Part shown: positions 1 through 25,579 of the stretch, piece by piece
Layout: every line of letters begins with the position of its first letter
How positions within the stretch are numbered: position 1 is the stretch's first letter
Virus record (IMG/VR): IMGVR_UViG_2531839131_000011
Source of the DNA: a virus
Taxonomy: Duplodnaviria > Heunggongvirae > Uroviricota > Caudoviricetes
Length of the DNA: 25,579 nucleotides
Strand: one strand, 5' to 3'
Notes under the pieces: model-generated
What the model was told of the DNA's origin: nothing
The model's input: the letters and a program-made list of their open reading frames with translations, nothing else
The model's database searches: none
Made by a program: the position numbers and the translations under genes

Positions 1-16
1 CCTCGGTTTACAGGAA
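1..16. other. gix-like recombination site, distal half (window starts at the site centre)
   Basis: cctcggtttacaggaa is the reverse complement of the inner half of the site at 3126-3151, with one mismatch (tgtaaa versus tgcaaa). Confidence 0.6.
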
Positions 17-961
17 ACGGTAAATCAGGCTTCTGGCGCATTACAGAAAAAACAGAACGGCGCAGATATTCCGGGAAAAGATACCTTCACCAAAAATATT
101 GGGGCCTGTCGCGCATATAGCGCATGGCTGAATATTGGTGGCGATAGTCAGGTCTGGACAACTGCGCAATTTATTTCGTGGCTGGAGAGTCAGGGGGCAT
201 TTAACCATCCTTACTGGATGTGCAAAGGCTCATGGGCTTATGCAAATAATAAGGTCATTACAGATACAGGTTGCGGAAATATTTGTCTTGCAGGTGCTGT
301 GGTGGAAGTTATTGGCACCCGCGGCGCAATGACCATACGCGTTACCACGCCGAGCACGTCCAGCGGTGGCGGAATCACTAACGCTCAATTCACTTATATT
401 AATCATGGTGATGCTTACGCTCCTGGCTGGCGACGAGACTACAACACGAAAAACCAGCAGCCTGCATTTGCTTTAGGGCAAACAGGACGCAGGGTCGCAA
501 ATGATAAAGCTGTTGGCTGGAACTGGAATAGCGGCGTTTATGATGCAGATATCAGTGGCGCATCGACATTAATCCTCCACTTTAATATGAATGCGGGGAG
601 TTGCCCTGCTGTACAGTTCCGCGTGAATTACAGAAATGGCGGTATCTTTTATCGTTCAGCGCGTGATGGTTATGGCTTTGAAGCTAACTGGTCAGAGTTT
701 TACACCACAACACGCAAACCCTCTGCGGGAGATGTTGGTGCATATACGCAGGCAGAAGGTAACTCAAGGTTTATTACAGGTATTCGCCTTGGCGGTCTGT
801 CATCTGTTCAGACATGGAATGGTCCTGGCTGGTCTGACAGGTCAGGTTATGTCGTTACTGGTTCAGTTAACGGAAACCGTGATGAATTAATTGATATAAC
901 TCAGGCAAGGCCAATTCAGTATTGCATTAATGGAACGTGGTATAACGCGGGGAGTATTTAA
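2..961 (+). CDS. S': S'v: alternative tail-fibre variable C-terminal domain, promoterless cassette (5' end is the gix crossover, no own start)
   Basis: Frame is open from window position 2. Begins [24 protein letters not shown], homologous to the Sc/Sv junction of the minus-strand S. Ends ...YCINGTWYNAGSI, like the S C-terminus ...[12 protein letters not shown]. The ORF-track start at 218 is internal. Confidence 0.75.
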   Translation, partial: LGLQETVNQASGALQKKQNGADIPGKDTFTKNIGACRAYSAWLNIGGDSQVWTTAQFISWLESQGAFNHPYWMCKGSWAYANNKVITDTGCGNICLAGAVVEVIGTRGAMTIRVTTPSTSSGGGITNAQFTYINHGDAYAPGWRRDYNTKNQQPAFALGQTGRRVANDKAVGWNWNSGVYDADISGASTLILHFNMNAGSCPAVQFRVNYRNGGIFYRSARDGYGFEANWSEFYTTTRKPSAGDVGAYTQAEGNSRFITGIRLGGLSSVQTWNGPGWSDRSGYVVTGSVNGNRDELIDITQARPIQYCINGTWYNAGSI

Positions 962-963
962 TT

Positions 964-1497
964 ATGATGCACTTAAAAAATATTACTGCTGGCAACCCTA
1001 AAACAAAAGAGCAATACCAGCTAACAAAGCAATTTAACATCAAATGGCTTTATTCAGATGATGGAAAAAACTGGTATGAGGAACAAAAGAATTTCCAGCC
1101 AGACACTTTGAAAATGGTCTATGACCATAACGGCGTTATTATTTGTATTGAAAAGGATGTTTCAGCAATTAATCCGGAAGGCGCAAGCGTCGTTGAATTA
1201 CCTGATATTACAGCAAATCGCCGGGCTGATATTTCGGGGAAATGGTTGTTCAAAGATGGCGTAGTGATAAAGCGAACTTATACCGAGGAAGAGCAGAGGC
1301 AACAAGCGGAAAATGAAAAGCAAAGCCTGTTGCAACTTGTCAGGGATAAAACCCAGCTATGGGACTCACAGCTACGGCTGGGCATCATTTCCGACGAGAA
1401 TAAACAAAAATTAACCGAGTGGATGCTCTATGCGCAGAAAGTCGAATCTACAGACCCCTCCAGCCTGCCAGTAACGTTTCCCGAACAACCAGAATGA
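964..1497 (+). CDS. U': U': alternative tail-fibre assembly chaperone (silent orientation)
   Basis: 177 aa, paralogous to the minus-strand U (MMHLKNI.AGN.KT.EQY.LTK... in both). Starts 2 nt after the S'v stop. Confidence 0.8.
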   Translation: MMHLKNITAGNPKTKEQYQLTKQFNIKWLYSDDGKNWYEEQKNFQPDTLKMVYDHNGVIICIEKDVSAINPEGASVVELPDITANRRADISGKWLFKDGVVIKRTYTEEEQRQQAENEKQSLLQLVRDKTQLWDSQLRLGIISDENKQKLTEWMLYAQKVESTDPSSLPVTFPEQPE

Positions 1498-1500
1498 GAG

Positions 1501-1527
1501 AAGGCCCGATATTGGGCCTTAATTTTT
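1501..1527 (+). terminator. Intrinsic terminator between the convergent U' and U genes
   Basis: aaggccc-gatatt-gggcctt hairpin followed by aattttt on the plus strand. On the minus strand the hairpin has no U tract. Confidence 0.5.
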
Positions 1528-2053
1528 ACTCAGGCTTTTGTGGCCATTCGGGATTTGCTGTATCCACACGGCTGACCAGAACGCTGTAGCGTTCCCATGA
1601 CTCCAGTCGTGTGCGTTCCTCATCCGTCGCCATATTCAGCCTGACAGCGCGTTCCAGTGGCTGAATAACGCTTTCAGCTTCAGAAAGCAACGCGCCCTTT
1701 TGTGATTCGGCTTGTTGTTGCTGTTCGTCTGCCGTATAAATCCGTTTAACTACAGCTCCATCCTTAAACATCCACTTTCCTGAATCATCAGCGCGGCGGT
1801 TGGCTGTTATATCGGGAACCTCAACGACGCTAAAACCTTCAGGGTTAAGCGTGGAGGCATCTTTAGTGATGGCGACAATAATATTATTTGCATCGTAAAC
1901 AATCTTTATTGTGTCTGGCTGAAAGTTTTTCACTTCCTCATACCAGTTTTTTTCGTCCTCAGAGTAAAGCCAGATGACTCCGTGCTTCTTTGTTAACTCA
2001 TACTGCTCCAGTGTTTTAGCGTTACCTGCTTTTATGTTCTTTAAGTGCATCAT
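1526..2053 (-). CDS. U: U: tail-fibre assembly chaperone (expressed orientation)
   Basis: 175 aa. ATG at 2053 is 2 nt after the S stop at 2055-2057. Tfa-like sequence. Confidence 0.85.
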
Positions 2054-2054
2054 A

Positions 2055-3647
2055 TTAAACGCTCGCTACATTATACCAAGTGCCATTTATATACTTTTGA
2101 ACTGGTCTGTAATAAACCCCCGCTATATTATCGGCAGAATTGGACCCTGTATCCTGAACATTAATACCAGATAATACATGACCTGACGGGCACTGGAAAT
2201 TCCATGTTTGCCAGTTGTTCACACCATAATATTGCTGTGAGCCAAGCCGAACATCTTTTACATATCGGGAATCTAAATTACTGAAATCAGACGGTAATAT
2301 CCGCCCAGTGATACTTATTTCTTTTTTGCTCTGTAACGTACCGTTCTGAAAGCGGAACACATGCACACCATTAGCATAAGCATCCAGCACCCCATCACCA
2401 TTTTGTTTAAACCCAGTATCGTTATCTCCTAAAACTATTGAATTTCCCCCCAGGGCATTAGCCGTTCCAATCCCCAGATTTCCGCTAAAAATGGCATTAA
2501 TACCGAATATTGAGTGAGAACAATAAAACCCTCGCCCATTGTTAAAATCCAGAATGGCTTGTGCGTTCGTGCTTTCTGTCGCGGGATTAGTTGCTCCCCA
2601 CTTATATGTTGTTTGACCGACGGTATAATCCTGAGTTGGAACAATAACCGTTAGCCCTTCTTCAGCAGAAACCCGCACAGGAAAAGCCCTGCCTTCAACG
2701 TAAAAAACGCTGCATACATCATCTTCTTTAAGGCTTGTTACAATGGAGTGGATTGCGCGCTCATTAGTCTGATACGTCGAAAAATAACCTGCCGCATATG
2801 AACCATGATCAGTCCAGCCACCAGGCATTACCATTCCATTGAATTCGCAGTTATTCATTGCGTAATCACCAGTGGCAGATGTGGTCGTTATAATCACTCT
2901 GGAAGCCAGCTCGCCAGTGCTGCCTGTGGAACGCCGGAAAATAACTGGATACCACTTTCCACCAACTGCATTAGACGGCGCATTAAATGCGTACTGCCGC
3001 ATTCCTTTTTTCTTATCCACCTCGCCTTTGCTGTAAACATTAATGTTACTCAGGAAGCGATCCTTATCAGGAATATCCGCGCCGTTCTGGTTTTTTTGTA
3101 ATGCGCCAGAAGCCAGATTTACCGTTTCCTGCAAACCGAGGTTTTGGATAAACAGCGGCTTATTGGGAATATCTGCTCCGTTCCGGTCTTTTGCCAGACG
3201 GGCATTGGCATTATCCATCGCAATTTTCACCGCTTTTGCGGTGGCTGCCAGCGTTTCACTGGGGCTGTCAGTGGCACTGGTTAGCTGAACGAGGCCTTTT
3301 TTGTTCAGGCTGGCATCCCAGATATCCAGATTTTCACGTGCTGTACGCTGTGCTGATGCCCCGGCAATTTTAATTTCGCTGAGGTTATTTTTTATCAGCA
3401 GCGCGTTATTGCTCATAATGGCTTTAATGGACAGTGCAAGCTGGTTTAATTTTGTTTTATCCGGTTGAATACCGGCTTCTTCCAGCGTGTTTAATAACTC
3501 CGCCTGCACAATATTAAACCAGTCCATACCGGGCCATGTGATAGCATTATTCCCGTCACCTTCTGAAAACCAGCGAACGATAGCACTACGCTGGGCGGAT
3601 ACGGGCGGCATGACGGTTACGCCGCTGTCGTTATCAATATAAAACAT
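2055..3647 (-). CDS. S: S: tail fibre protein (constant N-terminal part 3152-3647 fused across gix to variable part 2055-3125)
   Basis: 530 aa. Coiled-coil-like N-terminal part, C-terminal receptor-binding-like domain. The gix site lies in frame within it. Start overlaps the upstream stop (TAATG). Confidence 0.85.
3126..3151. other. gix-like Gin/Hin-family crossover site inside the S gene
   Basis: ttcctgcaaaccgaggttttggataa: two inverted 12-bp half-sites around a central 2 bp, matching the gix/hix consensus as I recall it. In the S frame it encodes FIQNLGLQE. Confidence 0.7.
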
Positions 3648-4189
3648 TAGTTATCTCCGTCATGGTAAACAAATTTATAAATCTGATGCGCGGGTTTATA
3701 TTTCTCCAGTAAACATTCCAGCGCACCCGATTCATAAACACGTAACGGCGTCAGAACATTATCCAGCACCGTTGCGTTGCGATAATTTTTAATACCGTAA
3801 ATATTGACCTGCGTAACCCACTGGCCTTCTGTGGAATCCGTCAGCCTGACGGTAAAACCGTACTGCGCAGCCAGCCATTCATAAAAGCGCCGACTCAGAT
3901 TGCCGGTCATACGCATTTTATTCGCGGCAGCCCGCCGGCGTTCTGACAGGGTGCCGTTTTCGCTTGTACAGTCCGGCAACCCCAGAAATGATTCCCACTC
4001 ACCCAGATACCAGCGGGATGTGGACGGGAAACGCTCCCGCAGCATTTGCCGCGCATCATCCGCCGCAGTGGCAATCACGTCGCTGATGGCCTGCGCCAGC
4101 GCAGATAATTTGCTGTCGGGGCTTTTATTCCAGGCAAGCCCTGACGGCAGTAATTGCAGAAAGGCCGTCTGCCAGGGTGTTACAGCCAT
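3647..4189 (-). CDS. Baseplate / fibre-attachment protein (Mu gp48-like)
   Basis: 180 aa. ATG at 4189. Sits between the baseplate J-like gene and S. Translationally coupled to S. Confidence 0.55.
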   Translation of the reverse strand: MAVTPWQTAFLQLLPSGLAWNKSPDSKLSALAQAISDVIATAADDARQMLRERFPSTSRWYLGEWESFLGLPDCTSENGTLSERRRAAANKMRMTGNLSRRFYEWLAAQYGFTVRLTDSTEGQWVTQVNIYGIKNYRNATVLDNVLTPLRVYESGALECLLEKYKPAHQIYKFVYHDGDN

Positions 4190-8895: not shown

Positions 8896-10971
8896 TTACC
8901 AGCCTGTAATGTAGTTATCGCCCGCGTAAATATTCAGCCCCATACCATCCTCGGTGACGCGGGAACTGGTCAGACGTAACCCCTCGCCAAGTTCGACGCG
9001 CAGCGAGGCTTCCGCATTGACTTTTTGTTCCTGCGGTTCCTTATCCGTGACCGTCCATTTCTGATACAGGTCGGTTACAAAACCGCCCAGATACTCCCCG
9101 GCGACACTGCCCAGCGTGGCACCGGCAACCGTACCCAGCGGTCCGGCAAGGCTGCCAACGGCACCGCCGAGCCATGCACCGGCTGTACTGCCAATTGCGC
9201 CTGCTTTTTCATGGGTTGACGCCTGCTCATCCATCAGGACGGGGGCAAGCTGGAGTGCCCCCATTACCGGGCCACCCAGACGTGACAACGCACGACCGGC
9301 ACCTTTCCCCATCCAGCCCAGCGCCCCGGCACCTTTTGTCACAACCCGACCGATCGCACTGCCTGCAAGTTTGTTTCCGATACCGGAAAACCACCCGCCA
9401 GCGGCACGCCCGGCATCAGCCAGCTTTCCGACCGCTCCCGTAACCAGTTGCCCGGCAGCACTGCCTGCAAGCCTGCTCAGAAGACCGGATTTACCGGGTA
9501 AAGGTAATGGTGCAGGCCGTGCCGTTACCGGTACGCCGGGTGGGGGTAATGCCAGAACAGGGCGTGGTGCAGGTAATGCCAGCGGCTGTGGCCCGGACAG
9601 CAATAACGGCTGGCGGGGTAACAGGGGCGTCATGCCTTTGCCTTTCCGGGTGCGACCACCACGGCCACCGCTTCCGTAACCGCCGAACCCGTGAGGCCAG
9701 TTAGTGACAAACACACGCTGAATGCCGATACCCTGCAACAGCGTCTCAGACGTCATGGCATCCGGGACCGGCAGACCTGCCTGCCCACGTTTGCGGTTTC
9801 GCATCCAGCGCCACATACGACGCCCGGTTTTAAACGGATAACTGGCAACCTGCCATGAGGGTTTTGCCACGGCCCAGCCTGCTCTCAGGGCTTTATTGGC
9901 AAGCCAGACAGACACCAGAACAGCAGCCAGTTTTTTCAGGCTGACAATATTCTGGTCAACCCATGCCAGCGCATCTTTACCCGGTTTCAGCCAGCGCCAT
10001 AATTCCTGCGCCGCGATTTTTACCTTTCTGAACGTGGTCAGGAATTTCTGACCAATGTTTTCTGCCAGTGCGTCCAGCTCCCCGGATTTATCCGCCGCAT
10101 CGTGCCAGTTAAGCACCCGGCGCATCTCGTTCTTGATTTCTTCAAAGGGGCCGCTGTTTGCCACCTTCGTGCGAAACTCAAGCAGGTTGCCCTCCATCTG
10201 GGCCATCATCCCGTCCCAGGAGTTCATGGCAGCCGCCTGTGCGCCTTCTGACTGCTCCAGCAGGGTCCGGAATACCGTCAGAATGGCTTTCTTGCCCAGC
10301 TTGCCTTTTTCACCCAGCTTACGGATTTTTTTCTCATCCTTACCCGTTGCATCTGCCAGCACCTTGTAAACGTTGATACCGTAACCGGTCAGCAGGTTGG
10401 CGTCCGCCGCCGTGATTTGCTGGCGGGCAAACATCTGTTTGAACTGTAACGAAGCCCCCTGCGCGGTGGGTAAATCCCAGCCATGCATCGCGCCCTGATT
10501 CTGTAGCATGGTGATGAACTGTTTTACCTGGGCGTCAGTCATGCCAAACGCCGTTGATGTGCGGATTTCCTGCAGAACGCCGCCCAGCCCCCAGGTGGTT
10601 TCTTTTGCGTTCTGCTTCGCCCACGCCATCATGGCCTGTGCTCTGGCCTTATCGCCGTGATACAGCGAGTTCATGGCGATAATCTGCTGCTCACGCTGGG
10701 CGGCGGCACCAATAAACAGTTTATTGGCGGTGTAACCCACGCCAGCGATACCCAGCGCCCCGGCTGACAGCATTCGGAATGTACGGGTTGACAGTGAACC
10801 CATTCTGTCAATGGCACCAGAAACGCGCACAACCTCCATACGCAGGGCACGAAGGGAACTTTGTCCGCTACGGGACAGGGCGTTTATCTGGTTCGAATAC
10901 TCGCGGGAACGCCGGGAAAGATTGCCATTAAGATCAATAATGACAGACGCCTTTAAGCGTTTCCCGGTCAT
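8896..10971 (-). CDS. Tail tape measure protein
   Basis: About 692 aa from ATG 10971 (AGGA 7 nt upstream). N-terminal helical region, Pro-rich repeats, Gly/Ala-rich C-terminal half. The ORF-track start at 11064 adds 31 non-protein-like residues and overlaps a promoter-like motif. Confidence 0.75.
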
Positions 10972-11014
10972 AGAGATTTCCTGATTTAACGGTGATATTG
11001 AGAGAGGGTTTTCG

Positions 11015-11055
11015 CCTGCTGGCAGTGCCGGAAAAAGCGGGACAGCGGGAGAGAC
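11015..11055 (-). promoter_or_regulatory. Candidate late promoter upstream of the tape-measure gene (possible C-dependent P promoter)
   Basis: Minus strand CCCGCTGTCCCGC...GCACTGCC in a 144-bp gap, resembling the elements upstream of lys and I. Confidence 0.3.
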
Positions 11056-11115
11056 AAGGCCCATTCCGGGCCACTTTTCAGAATAACGCCAATCGCTGTC
11101 GCCGCTTTCTCAATA

Positions 11116-13431: not shown

Positions 13432-13662
13432 TTACTCCGTTTTTTTCAGCGCAGCGTCGGTATCATCCGCCGTGTTTTCGGTGCTCCCGACTTCAACCAC
13501 ATCAGTGTTTTCGGTGCTCCCGACTTCAACCACATCACCGGCTACAAGGCGACGTATCCAGAAACTGTTACGGGGCTTTTCTTCTCCCTCAGGCGCCAGT
13601 AATTCCATCGTGAGCGGGTCACGGATGGTTTTTCCCTCTGCGGGTTTAATTTTCAGCATCAT
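13432..13662 (-). CDS. Small neck-region protein (Mu gp38-like) carrying an 11-aa tandem duplication
   Basis: 76 aa. Contains DVVEVGSTENT twice, encoded by a perfect 33-bp duplication at 13472-13537. Confidence 0.5.
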   Translation of the reverse strand: MMLKIKPAEGKTIRDPLTMELLAPEGEEKPRNSFWIRRLVAGDVVEVGSTENTDVVEVGSTENTADDTDAALKKTE

Positions 13663-22256: not shown

Positions 22257-22832
22257 TCATGCCTTACCCAGCAGTACATCACGGATACGCTGCTCCAGCT
22301 CTTCGCTGATGCCATCCTGCCCGCGCAGTTCTTCACTGACGGCGTTTGCCGCTTCTTCTGCGAATGCCTGGCGGATTTCTTTCTCGCGCCGGTGGCTGGA
22401 CATTGCCGTGGATTCCAGACGCTGTGCCGCCAGCATGGCATTTTTCAGCAGGTCAATATCCACGTCAGATTCCGGGTTTTCGATTTGCCGCATCATGGCC
22501 TTAAAAAGCTGGCTGCGAGCCATTTCCAGAATCAGCTTTGTGGTTTCGCCCATTGGCTTGTCGCCAAGTTCTGCGGTCAGTGCTGACGTCATTTCACGCA
22601 TCTGTCGCAGGTTATGGCCTACCTGCTCGACGTTCGTCGCGTAACGGTTCAGACCGGAACGGGAGAGTTTCATCTCATCCGGCAGGCCAGCGTCTTCAAT
22701 CAGTGCGTTAATTTCTTCCAGAATGCGGGCCTGTGGGATCGCTTTATCACGCAGCATTTCATGCAGCGTTTTACGTACGTTTTCCGGCAGTAAATCCACT
22801 TTTGAAGCCCGGCCCCGTGTTTTCCTGTCCAT
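22257..22832 (-). CDS. Terminase small-subunit-like protein (Mu gp27-like)
   Basis: About 191 aa from ATG 22832 (AGGAGG Shine-Dalgarno). Charged helical protein directly upstream of the large subunit. Confidence 0.55.
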   Translation of the reverse strand: MDRKTRGRASKVDLLPENVRKTLHEMLRDKAIPQARILEEINALIEDAGLPDEMKLSRSGLNRYATNVEQVGHNLRQMREMTSALTAELGDKPMGETTKLILEMARSQLFKAMMRQIENPESDVDIDLLKNAMLAAQRLESTAMSSHRREKEIRQAFAEEAANAVSEELRGQDGISEELEQRIRDVLLGKA

Positions 22833-22843
22833 CACGCCTCCTG

Positions 22844-23134
22844 TCATGCACGGGGACGAGGACGCTTGACACCGGCAACGCGGGCACGACCTTCTGCCAC
22901 ATCCTGACCCCGGGAAGTCAGCGTTACGACATAAAAGCCGCGCAGGTTTTCCACGGTGACCAGTTGCTGCTCTGCCAGCCAGTCAATCTGGCCGCGAACC
23001 ACATCACGGGAAACGTTGTGTCCGTATGCATCCAGACAGTCCTGAAGGATGGATTCGTTGGCTTCGTTATTGCAGTCCATCAGGGAACGCAGGATGACCA
23101 GACGACGGTCTTCGGTCAGAATATCGTTAATCAT
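22844..23134 (-). CDS. Small protein, possible winged-helix fold (Mu gp26-like)
   Basis: 96 aa. ATGA overlap with the upstream gene. Confidence 0.45.
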   Translation of the reverse strand: MINDILTEDRRLVILRSLMDCNNEANESILQDCLDAYGHNVSRDVVRGQIDWLAEQQLVTVENLRGFYVVTLTSRGQDVAEGRARVAGVKRPRPRA

Positions 23135-23424
23135 GAATTACTCCGGTTTACTGCGTTTTCAAGCAGCAGCTCCAGTTGATGGGAAAATGACTGCACCCGC
23201 TGGGACAGCACCCGGATATCACCGGACAGCTCTGCAATTCGCAGGCGCATTTCGTGTACATCTTCTGTGCCGGGGATGCTGGCGTAGCGGGTTTCCATTT
23301 CGGTCATCCGGTTTTCAAGACGCTCCACACGCTCGGTGCTGGCAAAACTACGACGCATCGCCCAGACGGCCCCACCGGCCACAACAGGCAACAGGTAAGG
23401 CCATAACGCTAAAACTGAATCCAT
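23131..23424 (-). CDS. Membrane-anchored coiled-coil protein (Mu gp25-like, candidate releasin for the SAR lysozyme)
   Basis: About 97 aa from ATG 23424 (GGAG Shine-Dalgarno; the ORF-track start is a GTG 18 nt upstream). N-terminal hydrophobic segment LALWPYLLPVVAGGAVWAM, then heptad-like region. Confidence 0.45.
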   Translation of the reverse strand: MDSVLALWPYLLPVVAGGAVWAMRRSFASTERVERLENRMTEMETRYASIPGTEDVHEMRLRIAELSGDIRVLSQRVQSFSHQLELLLENAVNRSNS

Positions 23425-23618
23425 TATTCTGCTCCACGGCACCAGTGGCAGTAGTTCGCCATCGGCTGCTGTCTCAGCACATCAGGCCGCAGCTCACGAC
23501 CGCAACCGGCACACAATACAGGCGGGTCATACGCCGCCGGGCGGGGAATATCACGGGTATCCCCCTGCCAGAGTTCAGCGAGCAGCAGCGCCAGCGCCCG
23601 GTTCTGGTCTTCGTTCAT
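23424..23618 (-). CDS. C4 zinc-finger protein, TraR/DksA-like (Mu gp24-like)
   Basis: 64 aa with CAGC-x17-CHWC, i.e. Cys-x2-Cys-x17-Cys-x2-Cys. Confidence 0.5.
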   Translation of the reverse strand: MNEDQNRALALLLAELWQGDTRDIPRPAAYDPPVLCAGCGRELRPDVLRQQPMANYCHWCRGAE

Positions 23619-23916
23619 AAATTTCTTTCCTTCGGGTCTCCTGTTCCCGGACTGATGCCTTGTCGCGGTTGCACTGCCCGAGCGCCATCAACAGGTCAGC
23701 ATTCCAGAGAAGGGATGCTCCCCACGTCAGGGGCTGTGGCATGGGCGGAACGGGCGTTGCTTCCGTCAGTTCTGCATCAGTTTCGGGCAGGAGCACCACC
23801 GATGGCACGGGTGCGTTTTTCGAGTTCCCGCAACCTGTCAGCAGCAACGGCAGGCACAGGACGAGTGCTGCAATTGTCACCGGTAATGGCGGTTGTAATT
23901 TTTTGTTTTGCATCAT
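23575..23916 (-). CDS. Outer-membrane spanin (lipoprotein)
   Basis: Tandem ATG at 23916/23913. MMQNKKLQPPLPVTIAALVLCLPLLLTGC is a signal peptide with an L-T-G-C lipobox. Pro-rich mature part. Out of frame with, and overlapping, the inner spanin gene. Confidence 0.55.
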   Translation of the reverse strand: MMQNKKLQPPLPVTIAALVLCLPLLLTGCGNSKNAPVPSVVLLPETDAELTEATPVPPMPQPLTWGASLLWNADLLMALGQCNRDKASVREQETRRKEIYERRPEPGAGAAAR

Positions 23917-24163
23917 GATGTTCTGTCTCGTCTGCCAGCCGTGCGGCACGATTTGCGGCACGGATAGCGGAAAATACCTGCATCGTCTGTTCCTGACCGT
24001 GTAACAACCATTCAGCAGTGTGGCGGGCCTGTTGCTCCGTCTGTAATTCACGGCGCAGCGTCTGGTTATCGTGGCAGGTGCTGTCCAGCCTGTGCCACAA
24101 CACCCCGGACAGAACGGCGGCAAACACGGCAGCCAGCAGTAAACTTTTACTGGCGAAGGTCAT
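23777..24163 (-). CDS. Inner-membrane spanin
   Basis: 128 aa. N-terminal transmembrane segment LLLAAVFAAVLSGVLW, then charged helical periplasmic domain. Starts 17 nt before the lysozyme stop. Confidence 0.6.
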   Translation of the reverse strand: MTFASKSLLLAAVFAAVLSGVLWHRLDSTCHDNQTLRRELQTEQQARHTAEWLLHGQEQTMQVFSAIRAANRAARLADETEHHDAKQKITTAITGDNCSTRPVPAVAADRLRELEKRTRAIGGAPARN

Positions 24164-24665
24164 CCGCCCCCCTGATATTCCAGATAGCCATTTCCACTTC
24201 GCGACGGTTCATCAGTCCTTTCCATTTATGGCCTGCGGCAAACACCCAGCGGGCCATCTGGTCACGCGCTCCGGCGTAATCACCGGCATTGAGTTTTTTC
24301 AGCAGCGTTGATTTACTGAATGCGGTAACACCGGTGTTGAAAATAAACGTTGCCAGCGCCGTTTTCTGATATGGCGTCAGCGGCACCCTGACAAGACGAT
24401 CGATTGCCGCATAAACCGGTTTTAAATCACTGTCGAGAAGAGCCATACACTCCGCATGGCTGTAACGGCGCATTTCGATATCCGGCCCGGTATGTCCCAC
24501 ACAGACCGTAAGCACACCGGCAATATCGCGGTAAGGCATATAAGCGATATTTTCCAGATGGATCAGAGACTGACGGGTCATTTCCTGATAACCACCCACA
24601 CCGCCACCGGCAATCGTTGCCGCCAGCAGTGCGGCTTTCAGTTTTTTTGGTATCCCCGCCATCAT
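24147..24665 (-). CDS. lys: Endolysin, T4-lysozyme-like with N-terminal SAR-type segment
   Basis: 172 aa. E-x8-D-x5-T catalytic pattern (LENIAYMPYRDIAGVLT). N-terminal Gly/Ala-rich weakly hydrophobic segment KKLKAALLAATIAGGGVGG. Confidence 0.85.
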   Translation of the reverse strand: MMAGIPKKLKAALLAATIAGGGVGGYQEMTRQSLIHLENIAYMPYRDIAGVLTVCVGHTGPDIEMRRYSHAECMALLDSDLKPVYAAIDRLVRVPLTPYQKTALATFIFNTGVTAFSKSTLLKKLNAGDYAGARDQMARWVFAAGHKWKGLMNRREVEMAIWNIRGADDLRQ

Positions 24666-24685
24666 GCTTCCCTGAAAAAATGCGC

Positions 24686-24725
24686 TGATGGCAGTCTAAA
24701 AAATCAGATGGCAGGTGCGGGATTA
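24686..24725 (-). promoter_or_regulatory. Candidate C-dependent late promoter P-lys
   Basis: Minus strand CCCGCACCTGCC ... TTTTTTAGACTGCC between the C terminator and the lys start. Confidence 0.5.
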
Positions 24726-24735
24726 TGGTGACAGG

Positions 24736-24762
24736 AAATAACCGGCAGGATGCCGGTTATTT
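24736..24762 (-). terminator. Intrinsic terminator of the middle (C) transcript
   Basis: Perfect stem aaataaccggca / tgccggttattt with 3-nt loop. The C stop codon lies inside it. Followed on the minus strand by a short U-rich run. Confidence 0.6.
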
Positions 24763-25179
24763 TGGGCTTTCAGGTGAGAACAGATCAGGCTGATGACGTC
24801 GTGTATGCAGCTTTCTCTGGCGGGCAATAATCTGGTAGATCTGCGGCTGGGACAGGCGATACTGGCGACGCAGTTCTTCCATGTTACGACCATTGAACTG
24901 GCAGTAAAGCAAATCGTCGCGTAACGCGGTCAGGATCGTATCGCCGCAGGGGATGTAAAACTGCCGCCCGCCCAGAAAACAGGACAGGGCAACGGCCTGT
25001 TTACGGGCAAGCTCACGGGGATTGCTGACGTTCTGGCGTTTCAGTTCGTTTTCCAGAATATCAATCAGATCAACCACTGAACGGGGCCAGCGTGATTCCA
25101 GTTCCGGGGCCGGGATGTTATCAATATGCCCGATTAACTGGCGAATTGCCGGATCGTGTTCAAATAAATCATGCTGCAT
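24757..25179 (-). CDS. C: Late-gene transcriptional activator C (Mor/C family)
   Basis: 140 aa. Sits directly upstream of the lysis genes, separated by terminator and promoter. Confidence 0.8.
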   Translation of the reverse strand: MQHDLFEHDPAIRQLIGHIDNIPAPELESRWPRSVVDLIDILENELKRQNVSNPRELARKQAVALSCFLGGRQFYIPCGDTILTALRDDLLYCQFNGRNMEELRRQYRLSQPQIYQIIARQRKLHTRRHQPDLFSPESPK

Positions 25180-25191
25180 ATTTTCCCCCGG

Positions 25192-25311
25192 TTAACAGAC
25201 AAAAAGATACACCACGGCACTGATGGTTATCAGAACCACAAGGGCAATCACTTTTATCGCATTAATCAGCGTGGACGGCCCGAAACATTCATCACTGAAT
25301 TTTCTGTACAT
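25192..25311 (-). CDS. Small single-pass membrane peptide (39 aa), middle operon
   Basis: MYRKFSDECFGPSTLINAIKVIALVVLITISAVVYLFVC. AAAGGGG Shine-Dalgarno. Stop is 12 nt before the C start. Too short for the ORF track. Confidence 0.4.
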   Translation of the reverse strand: MYRKFSDECFGPSTLINAIKVIALVVLITISAVVYLFVC

Positions 25312-25320
25312 GGTGCCCCT

Positions 25321-25428
25321 TTACCCGAACAGACGAGCGCGAAAACGAAAGGAGAGCCAGAACGTCAGCAATCCGGCCAGCGCCCAGATGACATACTCAG
25401 GACCCGTTTTCAGTTGAGACGTTGCCAT
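25321..25428 (-). CDS. Small membrane peptide (35 aa), middle operon
   Basis: MATSQLKTGPEYVIWALAGLLTFWLSFRFRARLFG. No clear Shine-Dalgarno. Overlaps a partial ORF in another frame. Confidence 0.25.
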   Translation of the reverse strand: MATSQLKTGPEYVIWALAGLLTFWLSFRFRARLFG

Positions 25429-25579
25429 CACGGCTAATCCCAGCCCGGACAGCCCCCCCCAGCCAGGTCAGAGGCCAGACGAACCGGGCAAAATGTTCAG
25501 GCACCCGGCAGCTCATTATCAGCGCATCCAGACAATCAGCGGCAACACTTAAAGCAACACTGAAAACCGAGGCACAGCA

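Follow-up and report, generated by a model that had tools for sequence, protein, structure and literature searches.

Our findings identify the genes between positions 23131 and 24665 (minus strand) of the 25,579-nucleotide stretch analysed here (the window) as the lysis cassette of a Mu-type (Muvirus) E. coli prophage, and we consider it very likely that this cassette works as it does in Mu. The present analysis establishes which genes these are, their order, their motifs and how nearly identical they are to Mu; that the alleles of this prophage also behave like those of Mu would follow by analogy. The holin-free Mu-type system is real but already known: experiments by Chamblee et al. (mBio, 2022) showed that Mu has no holin, that gp22 is a SAR endolysin which gp25 frees from the membrane and that gp23 and gp23.1 are spanins (PMC9239132), and the present copy is a rediscovery of that published system. 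An earlier note on this DNA had read the cassette as holin-less and Mu-like, pointing to a releasin described for Mu. The reading agrees with 98.2% DNA identity, and the parallel is correct in light of the annotation of the Mu reference record (AF083977) and the Mu experiments (PMC9239132). Published in 2022 and annotated in GenBank, the Mu system was the first case in which lysis by a tailed phage of a Gram-negative host was shown to do without a holin, its timing being set at the step of endolysin release through a new kind of protein; the window adds one more near-identical prophage copy to this picture and leaves it unchanged.

Identity of the window and its likeness to phage Mu

The window is a complete contig (APYL01000024.1) from the E. 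coli draft assembly GCA_000357185.2 and is about 96.5% identical to Mu and D108 at the DNA level, a value that rises to 98.2% across positions 22800-25579. Because of the latter identity to Mu, our observation lies far beyond chance. Over its first 25 kb the window matches Mu at 96.4% identity across 96% of the sequence with all late genes collinear, which assigns it to Muvirus by identity and synteny. For the homologous genes, the curated GenBank record AF083977, which served as Mu reference, gives the labels SAR endolysin (gp22), i-spanin, o-spanin and releasin (gp25). The lysis genes are as follows.

24147..24662, minus strand: gp22 (lys), SAR endolysin, GH24 muramidase, 171 aa (Phage_lysozyme match, catalytic triad)
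23777..24163, minus strand: gp23, i-spanin (inner-membrane subunit), 128 aa (PHROG 214 match, N-terminal TMD)
23575..23916, minus strand: gp23.1, o-spanin (outer-membrane lipoprotein subunit), 113 aa (Pfam LysC, PHROG 3001, lipobox)
23424..23618, minus strand: gp24, 64 aa, CxxC...CxxC, between the o-spanin and releasin genes (PHROG 3260 match)
23131..23424, minus strand: gp25, releasin (DUF2730), 97 aa, with predicted N-out/C-in TMD and two-helix cytoplasmic domain

Genes, order, strand, overlaps, promoter and terminator are all shared with the Mu lysis cassette (gp22, gp23/gp23.1, gp24, gp25). Identical or conserved are the catalytic triad and K6/K7 of gp22, the lipobox, the gp25 TMD with its two arginines and the whole gp25 cytoplasmic domain, while the differences from Mu are minor: a deletion of L3-I4 in gp25, V15A in gp22, five and seven substitutions in the two spanins, V9L in gp24 and a frameshift in gene 19.

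Could the cassette be a decaying, non-functional remnant of a defective prophage? The gene 19 frameshift and the two-residue deletion in gp25 would fit such a scenario, as would a contig that carries only part of the prophage, with the late region present and the early region absent. Since the window is a complete contig, however, the missing early genes reflect assembly breaks rather than deletion. The frameshift lies in a homopolymer (a run of eight G at 25453-25460, with one extra base compared to Mu) some 120 nt short of the contig end, and a sibling assembly of 99.94% identity lacks it and has the gene intact, so the frameshift is probably an artefact. Moreover, the late genes from lys to the tail-fibre genes are all full length compared to Mu, and start codons, stop codons, overlaps and motifs are preserved in all of the lysis genes. 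With Mu late genes 22 to U all intact, the late region of the prophage looks functional, and to our minds decay of the cassette is highly improbable.

Control of the lysis genes

Upstream of lys we located the following elements and middle genes.

24673..24739, minus strand: Plys, C-dependent late promoter of the lysis/head operon (Mu feature in AF083977, with PMID 2522923 cited therein)
24736..24763, minus strand: terminator hairpin following gene C, AAAATAACCGGCATCCTGCCGGTTATTT, at the end of the middle operon (identical to Mu)
24757..25179, minus strand: gene C, Mor-family activator of late transcription that switches on the lysis/late promoter (Pfam Mor, E=2.4e-33)
25192..25311, minus strand: gp20, 39 aa, single TMD, middle gene, former antiholin candidate (PHROG 19823, unknown function)
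25321..25579, minus strand: gp19, four TMDs, middle gene, former holin candidate (both fragments match PHROG 4975)

The C protein (140 aa), labelled 'transcription regulator C' in AF083977, carries two substitutions compared to Mu. For the terminator, a Mu feature 'predicted by TransTermHP', coordinates were carried over through the alignment. The aligned 151-nt stretch containing Plys differs from Mu by four substitutions, and by analogy Plys would function here as in Mu. A scan of positions 22800-25579 for sigma-70 promoters and terminators returned sites no more frequently than in shuffled sequence, a null result in keeping with the dependence of Plys on C.

The lysozyme gp22

The lysozyme ORF spans 24147-24665, and its second ATG corresponds to the annotated start in Mu, which gives a gene of 171 codons (24147-24662). 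Its product matches Pfam Phage_lysozyme (GH24; E=1e-37), and a regular expression found the E37-x8-D46-x5-T52 triad of the catalytic domain. Residues 6-25, KKLKAALLAATIAGGGVGGY, hold five Gly, five Ala and one Thr, with 11 of the 20 being weakly hydrophobic and a mean Kyte-Doolittle (KD) value of 0.67; for residues 10-25, AALLAATIAGGGVGGY, which follow K6, K7 and K9, the mean rises to 1.33. A weakly hydrophobic, charge-free, Gly/Ala-rich N-terminal segment that comes after basic residues is consistent with a SAR domain. Both the triad and the Gly/Ala-rich N-terminus on which the earlier note had based its SAR assignment are thus present.

Compared to Mu, the sole change in gp22 is V15A, which makes the SAR segment slightly less hydrophobic, while K6, K7, K9, E37, D46 and T52 are all kept. 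Its exact sequence is shared with D108 Lys and was found on more than 1000 contigs. Among solved structures, the best relatives are 4zpu (RrrD) and 3hde/3hdf (E about 1e-37), which align from residue 5 onwards; we take 3hde/3hdf to be the phage 21 enzyme R21. R21, a GH24 endolysin, is homologous to gp22 over the full length including the N-terminal segment. Mu gp22 has been shown to be exported via Sec, to be tethered to the membrane and to be freed when the membrane is depolarised or a pinholin acts, the phage 21 pinholin being able to release it, and K6 together with K7 confers releasin dependence (PMC9239132). These two lysines are conserved in the present gp22, which by analogy may be exported, tethered and released in the same way.

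The spanins gp23 and gp23.1

The gene for gp23 begins 17 nt before the end of lys, and its product matches the 'Rz-like spanin' family PHROG 214 (E=1.7e-34) and has an N-terminal TMD at residues 4-22 (KD19 1.93). Five substitutions separate it from Mu gp23 (T15A, G21V, R30C, E87Q, D124A), of which R30C gives the protein an extra periplasmic Cys. The gp23.1 protein matches Pfam LysC (Rz1-like; E=1e-14) and PHROG 3001 (E=1e-29), differs from its Mu counterpart by seven substitutions and carries a lipobox (LTGC) with Cys29, leaving a mature protein of 85 aa with 12% Pro. Read in the +1 frame, its gene starts inside that of gp23, shares 140 nt with it and ends 202 nt past the gp23 stop codon, which bears out the previous description of an out-of-frame spanin overlap with the lipoprotein running past the inner spanin. 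Hence, gp23/gp23.1 is a two-component spanin of 'overlapped' rather than 'embedded' architecture. In lambda, by contrast, the Rz1 gene lies wholly inside Rz and is therefore embedded. Lambda RzRz1 complements a Mu gp23.1 amber mutant (PMC9239132).

Is there a holin?

Among the Mu-equivalent genes of the window, only gp19, gp20, gp23, gp23.1 and gp25 are predicted membrane proteins, and neither Pfam nor PHROGs links any of them to a holin family. In the late operon, the spanins and gp25 are the only membrane proteins encoded, and no candidate for a canonical holin or pinholin is found there, in agreement with the earlier note, which had named a canonical holin nearby as a finding that would speak against its reading. 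The former candidates nearby are genes 19 and 20, which are middle genes just upstream of gene C. The gp20 protein differs from Mu by one substitution (KD19 2.96), and gene 19 is cut by the contig end and carries the frameshift described above.

A holin might nonetheless exist if gp19 and gp20 formed a holin-antiholin pair which depolarises the membrane and thereby frees the SAR endolysin, with gp25 as an accessory. These two are the only other membrane proteins in the window, their genes lie about 1 kb or less from lys, and Samanta et al. suggested holin and antiholin roles for them from topology (as reported in PMC9239132). Yet genes 19 and 20 belong to the Mor-dependent middle operon and are separated from lys by gene C, the terminator and Plys; their products show the above lack of a holin family match, and gp19 is frameshifted in the present contig, albeit possibly by an assembly error. 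In Mu, moreover, none of gp19, gp20 and gp25 acts like a holin, addition of DNP after gp19/gp20 expression is not lethal and lysis is delayed, not triggered, by DNP (PMC9239132). The holin-antiholin reading has thus largely been refuted in Mu already, and we give it hardly any credence for the prophage studied here. Our preferred reading, the holin-free Mu-type system, also sets the cassette apart from canonical SAR systems, namely phage 21 (S21-68 and R21) and P1 Lyz, where a pinholin or holin depolarises the membrane: here there is no holin gene, and release would depend on a non-lethal DUF2730 protein.

The releasin gp25

The match of gp25 to Pfam DUF2730 spans residues 28-98 only and, at 50.4 bits (E=2.6e-13), lies above the curated cut-off of 24.9. 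Over residues 5-99 of Mu gp25 the identity is 100%, the only difference being the N-terminal deletion of L3-I4 (97 aa rather than 99 aa), so that family match and closeness to Mu gp25 place it among DUF2730 releasins of type I. A GTG start at 23442 (103 aa) was dropped in favour of the ATG at 23424, which is the start annotated in Mu and overlaps the stop codon of gp24. A TMD at about residues 3-23 is followed by R24 and R25, which are invariant in 17 homologues, as are the ASTERVE and HQLELLLENAVN motifs. Hydrophobic residues at positions 56, 59, 63, 66, 70, 73, 77, 80, 84 and 87 keep an unbroken 3-4 (heptad) spacing, and the cytoplasmic part holds 12 Asp plus Glu, nine Ser and two His, the same as described for Mu. 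These features suggest a single-pass protein with an acidic cytoplasmic domain and N-out/C-in orientation, the topology being a prediction from the positive-inside rule. An AlphaFold2 model built from the 17-sequence alignment contains two helices (8-46 and 55-95) at low confidence (mean pLDDT 59.9, pTM 0.27), which is too poor for a fold search or for conclusions on mechanism, so that we used its secondary structure only. The coiled-coil membrane protein of the earlier note is therefore present at 23131-23424 but does not directly follow the spanins: gene 24, which that note had missed, intervenes. Gene 25 is the fourth after lys, in a phage that also has a Mu-type C, Gp27, portal, protease and other Mu-family genes.

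In the mechanism that we propose along the lines of Mu, activator C would switch on Plys late in the lytic cycle, and gp22 would be exported via Sec in an inactive state, tethered to the inner membrane by its weakly hydrophobic, Gly/Ala-rich SAR segment. On its cytoplasmic side, the basic pair K6 and K7 would lock this segment in the bilayer until gp25, with its N-out/C-in single pass and helical acidic cytoplasmic domain, lets it exit the membrane, and neither a holin nor membrane depolarisation would take part in gp22 release. Once freed, the muramidase would refold and degrade peptidoglycan, whereupon the gp23/gp23.1 spanin complex would disrupt the outer membrane. In Mu, gp25 is required for gp22 release, is not lethal and is not triggered by energy poisons (PMC9239132), and by analogy the present allele with its L3-I4 deletion may well act as a releasin too.

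An alternative scenario sees the endolysin release itself spontaneously, with the DUF2730 protein lacking a lysis role here and perhaps serving as a morphogenesis or packaging factor. Consistent with this, gene 25 adjoins gp26, gp27 and terminase, many SAR endolysins self-release at some rate, V15A lowers the hydrophobicity of the SAR segment slightly and a Mu 25::cam mutant does eventually lyse at about 3 h (PMC9239132). Mu-like phages with endolysins that have no SAR domain likewise carry DUF2730 proteins (PMC9239132), so that a different or wider role of the family is conceivable. Deletion of gene 25 in Mu, however, abolishes timely lysis, and gp22 together with gp25 suffices for lysis while gp22 alone does not (PMC9239132). 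In addition, the dependence determinants K6/K7 are conserved in the present gp22, which is the common D108 allele and is paired with gp25 in all relatives. Spontaneous release with a bystander gp25 therefore strikes us as very unlikely indeed, and we favour release by gp25.

What may distinguish the present allele is its periplasmic tip, to which Chamblee et al. assign four residues (PMC9239132). Two of these are gone in our gp25, and the segment from D2 to R24 counts 21 instead of 23 residues, a shortening that could affect how the protein inserts or how active it is. Among homologues, however, a length of 97 aa and other indels near the N-terminus are frequent. The exact 97-aa gp25 was found on four contigs only, and this rare natural deletion could reveal if the tiny tip matters. 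More generally, the natural variants seen here (L3-I4 deletion in the releasin, V15A in the SAR segment, R30C in the i-spanin) could serve as ready-made alleles for releasin and spanin studies. A literature search for newer releasin work returned as relevant only the 2022 paper and a 2024 LambdaSo preprint, which cites the former without adding to it.

Relatives of the cassette

The same cassette is found at 98-99% identity in D108, SfMu, Yersinia vB_YpM phages and Mu-like E. coli prophages, the last being present in 41 of 5426 complete E. coli genomes. Full-query matches among those listed are 4-6 nt longer than the 2480-nt query and hence seem to be without the 6-nt gp25 deletion. Even a Mu-like phage with 65-70% protein identity keeps the order of SAR-type lysozyme, i-spanin, overlapped o-spanin, gp24-like protein and DUF2730 protein.

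The small four-cysteine protein gp24

Within 23131-24665, gp24 is the least explored element. It matches PHROG 3260, a family of unknown function (E=3e-42), and differs from Mu by V9L. Searches at E up to 10 returned only NinF and DUF7575 from Pfam, far below threshold, and no match among PDB sequences; neither 'gp24' nor 'gene 24' occurs in the main text of the 2022 Mu lysis paper (PMC9239132). Its gene shares 44 nt with that of the o-spanin and 1 nt with the start of gene 25, and this overlap with both neighbours suggests translational coupling. A role for gp24 as an unrecognised modulator of the lysis system, for instance one affecting the timing of releasin action, may be envisaged, though we regard it as unlikely. 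A homologue from a diverged Mu-like phage shares 44% identity and the same gene position, with all four Cys residues aligned.

Finally, a long ORF on the opposite strand (23049-23918, plus strand, 289 aa) was rejected as a gene and is seen as a non-coding shadow of the minus-strand genes; it is open in Mu too and is split into pieces of at most 145 codons in a diverged relative (L003).

Holin-less lysis cassette of the Mu type

Our analysis confirms the observation of a holin-less lysis cassette in the window and supports its interpretation as a Mu-type system, one that is already known, having been described experimentally in 2022 (PMC9239132) and annotated in the reference record. All genes of the region lie on the minus strand and run, from upstream to downstream, in the order C, Plys, lys, gp23, gp23.1, gp24 and gp25, beyond which lie gp26, gp27 and the terminase genes.

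Features of the lysis region
24757-25179, minus: C, late activator (140 aa; Mor family, E=2.4e-33)
about 24673-24763, minus: terminator hairpin and C-dependent promoter Plys, between C and lys
24147-24662, minus: lys, encoding gp22 (171 aa; Phage_lysozyme, E=1e-37)
23777-24163, minus: gp23, i-spanin (128 aa; PHROG Rz-like spanin, E=1.7e-34)
23575-23916, minus: gp23.1, o-spanin (113 aa; Pfam LysC/Rz1-like, E=1e-14)
23424-23618, minus: gp24 (64 aa; PHROG 3260, unknown function)
23131-23424, minus: gp25 (97 aa; DUF2730, E=2.6e-13)

The match to the Mu lysis system, which the earlier note had proposed, is borne out by 98.2% identity to phages Mu and D108 between 22800 and 25579 and by the Mu record AF083977, where the homologous genes are labelled SAR endolysin, i-spanin, o-spanin and releasin. 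Over the first 25 kb, identity to both phages is about 96.5% across 96% of the length, and the Mu late genes 22 through U are all present at full length. The window equals the whole of contig APYL01000024.1 (25,579 bp) from the E. coli assembly GCA_000357185.2; among 5426 complete E. coli genomes, 41 carry the cassette. The cassette is also kept in a diverged Mu-like phage (L003) with a gp25 about 65-70% identical: its lysozyme is again rich in Gly/Ala at the N-terminus, and it encodes an i-spanin, an o-spanin of the overlapped kind whose lipobox is LASC, a homologue of gp24 and a DUF2730 protein. A 289-aa antisense ORF (23049-23918, plus strand) opposite gp25, gp24 and gp23.1 is probably non-coding because, though open in Mu, it is broken in the diverged relative.

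Absence of a canonical holin

A membrane-protein scan (hydropathy threshold) covering the Mu-equivalent genes in the window gave as plausible proteins with TMD-like segments only gp19, gp20, gp23, the gp23.1 signal peptide and gp25; two large structural proteins barely exceed the threshold, at internal positions. Since gp19 and gp20 belong to the middle operon upstream of C, separated from lys by the terminator and Plys, and neither matches the holin families of Pfam or PHROG, the claim that no canonical holin lies nearby held within the window. Consistent with this, Mu gp19, gp20 and gp25 are not holins, being not lethal after DNP, which delays rather than triggers Mu lysis (PMC9239132).

Endolysin and spanins

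In Mu, gp22 acts as a SAR endolysin and can be released by the pinholin of phage 21; its basic residues 6 and 7 confer dependence on gp25 (PMC9239132). The catalytic triad is present in the window protein (E37-x8-D46-x5-T52), as is the Gly/Ala-rich N-terminus, residues 6-25 reading KKLKAALLAATIAGGGVGGY (5 Gly, 5 Ala, 1 Thr); a plain TMD scan misses this segment because its mean hydropathy is only 0.67. From Mu, gp22 differs by V15A, the D108 allele, found on >1000 contigs.

Amber mutants in the Mu spanin genes show the classic spherical-cell spanin phenotype, and the gp23.1am assay allowed rescue of lysis by lambda RzRz1 to be tested (PMC9239132). As proposed from sequence, the two genes overlap out of frame: the o-spanin reading frame begins within the i-spanin gene (+1 frame, 140-nt overlap) and reaches 202 nt past the i-spanin stop codon. 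The o-spanin lipobox is LTGC, with Cys29. There are 7 substitutions relative to Mu in gp23.1, whose exact sequence is absent from a 15-billion-protein collection, and five in gp23 (T15A, G21V, R30C, E87Q, D124A).

At i-spanin codon 30 (24074-24076), R30C also distinguishes the window from a sibling assembly and creates a second periplasmic Cys adjoining the membrane. Disulfide bonds are important for how lambda spanins function, so this change might alter formation of the spanin complex.

gp24 and the releasin gp25

Overlooked in the earlier note, gp24 is encoded after the o-spanin and before gp25, with overlaps of 44 nt and 1 nt, respectively. It carries a CxxC...CxxC pattern within its 64 residues, differs from Mu by V9L and has no match in Pfam or PDB; the Mu lysis paper (PMC9239132) uses neither 'gp24' nor 'gene 24' in its main text. 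In L003, a homologue (3800-3997) occupies the same position with 44% identity and 4/4 Cys retained.

The small membrane-anchored coiled-coil protein said to follow the spanins is gp25, its hydrophobic stretch (residues 3-23, then R24 R25) and the unbroken 3-4 spacing of hydrophobic residues over 56-87 agreeing with that description; its placement needs amending, as gp24 intervenes. A low-confidence AF2 model suggests two long helices, 8-46 and 55-95. Deletion of Mu gene 25 blocks timely lysis while gp22 is still made and chloroform-releasable, and gp22 plus gp25 suffice for lysis (PMC9239132); all Mu lysis determinants from that study are conserved in the window genes. The Mu authors weighed N-terminus proteolysis, charge neutralisation, a transient channel and a host partner as options for gp25 action (PMC9239132), among which the predicted structure is too weak to choose.

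Relative to Mu, gp25 lacks L3-I4 through a 6-nt deletion, and the exact 97-aa form is rare (4 contigs, 3 closely related sources). Judged by sequence comparison, this deletion falls within natural variation, since N-terminal indels are frequent among family members, a very common allele having the sequence MDSVLALWPYLLYLLPV..., and several homologues have 97 aa.

Other observations along the window

At 25440-25470 (minus), a stretch of 8 G with one base too many shifts the frame of gene 19, whose product is a 4-TMD middle-gene protein formerly proposed as the holin; the sibling assembly (GCA_000357165.1, 99.94% identical) has 6 G then T and an intact gene of 120 aa. An assembly error is likely because the site lies ~120 nt from the contig end.

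In the invertible G segment (1-3100), the variable C-terminal parts of tail-fibre S and S' match Mu only weakly (38-48% identity across the final ~80 residues, and 56% for U'). The remaining tail genes are 90-100% identical; S has 530 aa vs 504 aa in Mu. Given this weak match, the host range of this Mu-like prophage probably differs from that of Mu.

The putative sheath terminator gp38 (gene 38, 13438-13659) has an 11-residue insertion or repeat vs Mu (76.7% identity, 11 gaps), and self-comparison with the sibling contig gives a 33-nt tandem duplication there. The longest tape-measure ORF (8896-11064; 722 aa vs 691 aa aligned) begins 93 nt before the codon that corresponds to the Mu start, probably reflecting merely an upstream in-frame ATG.
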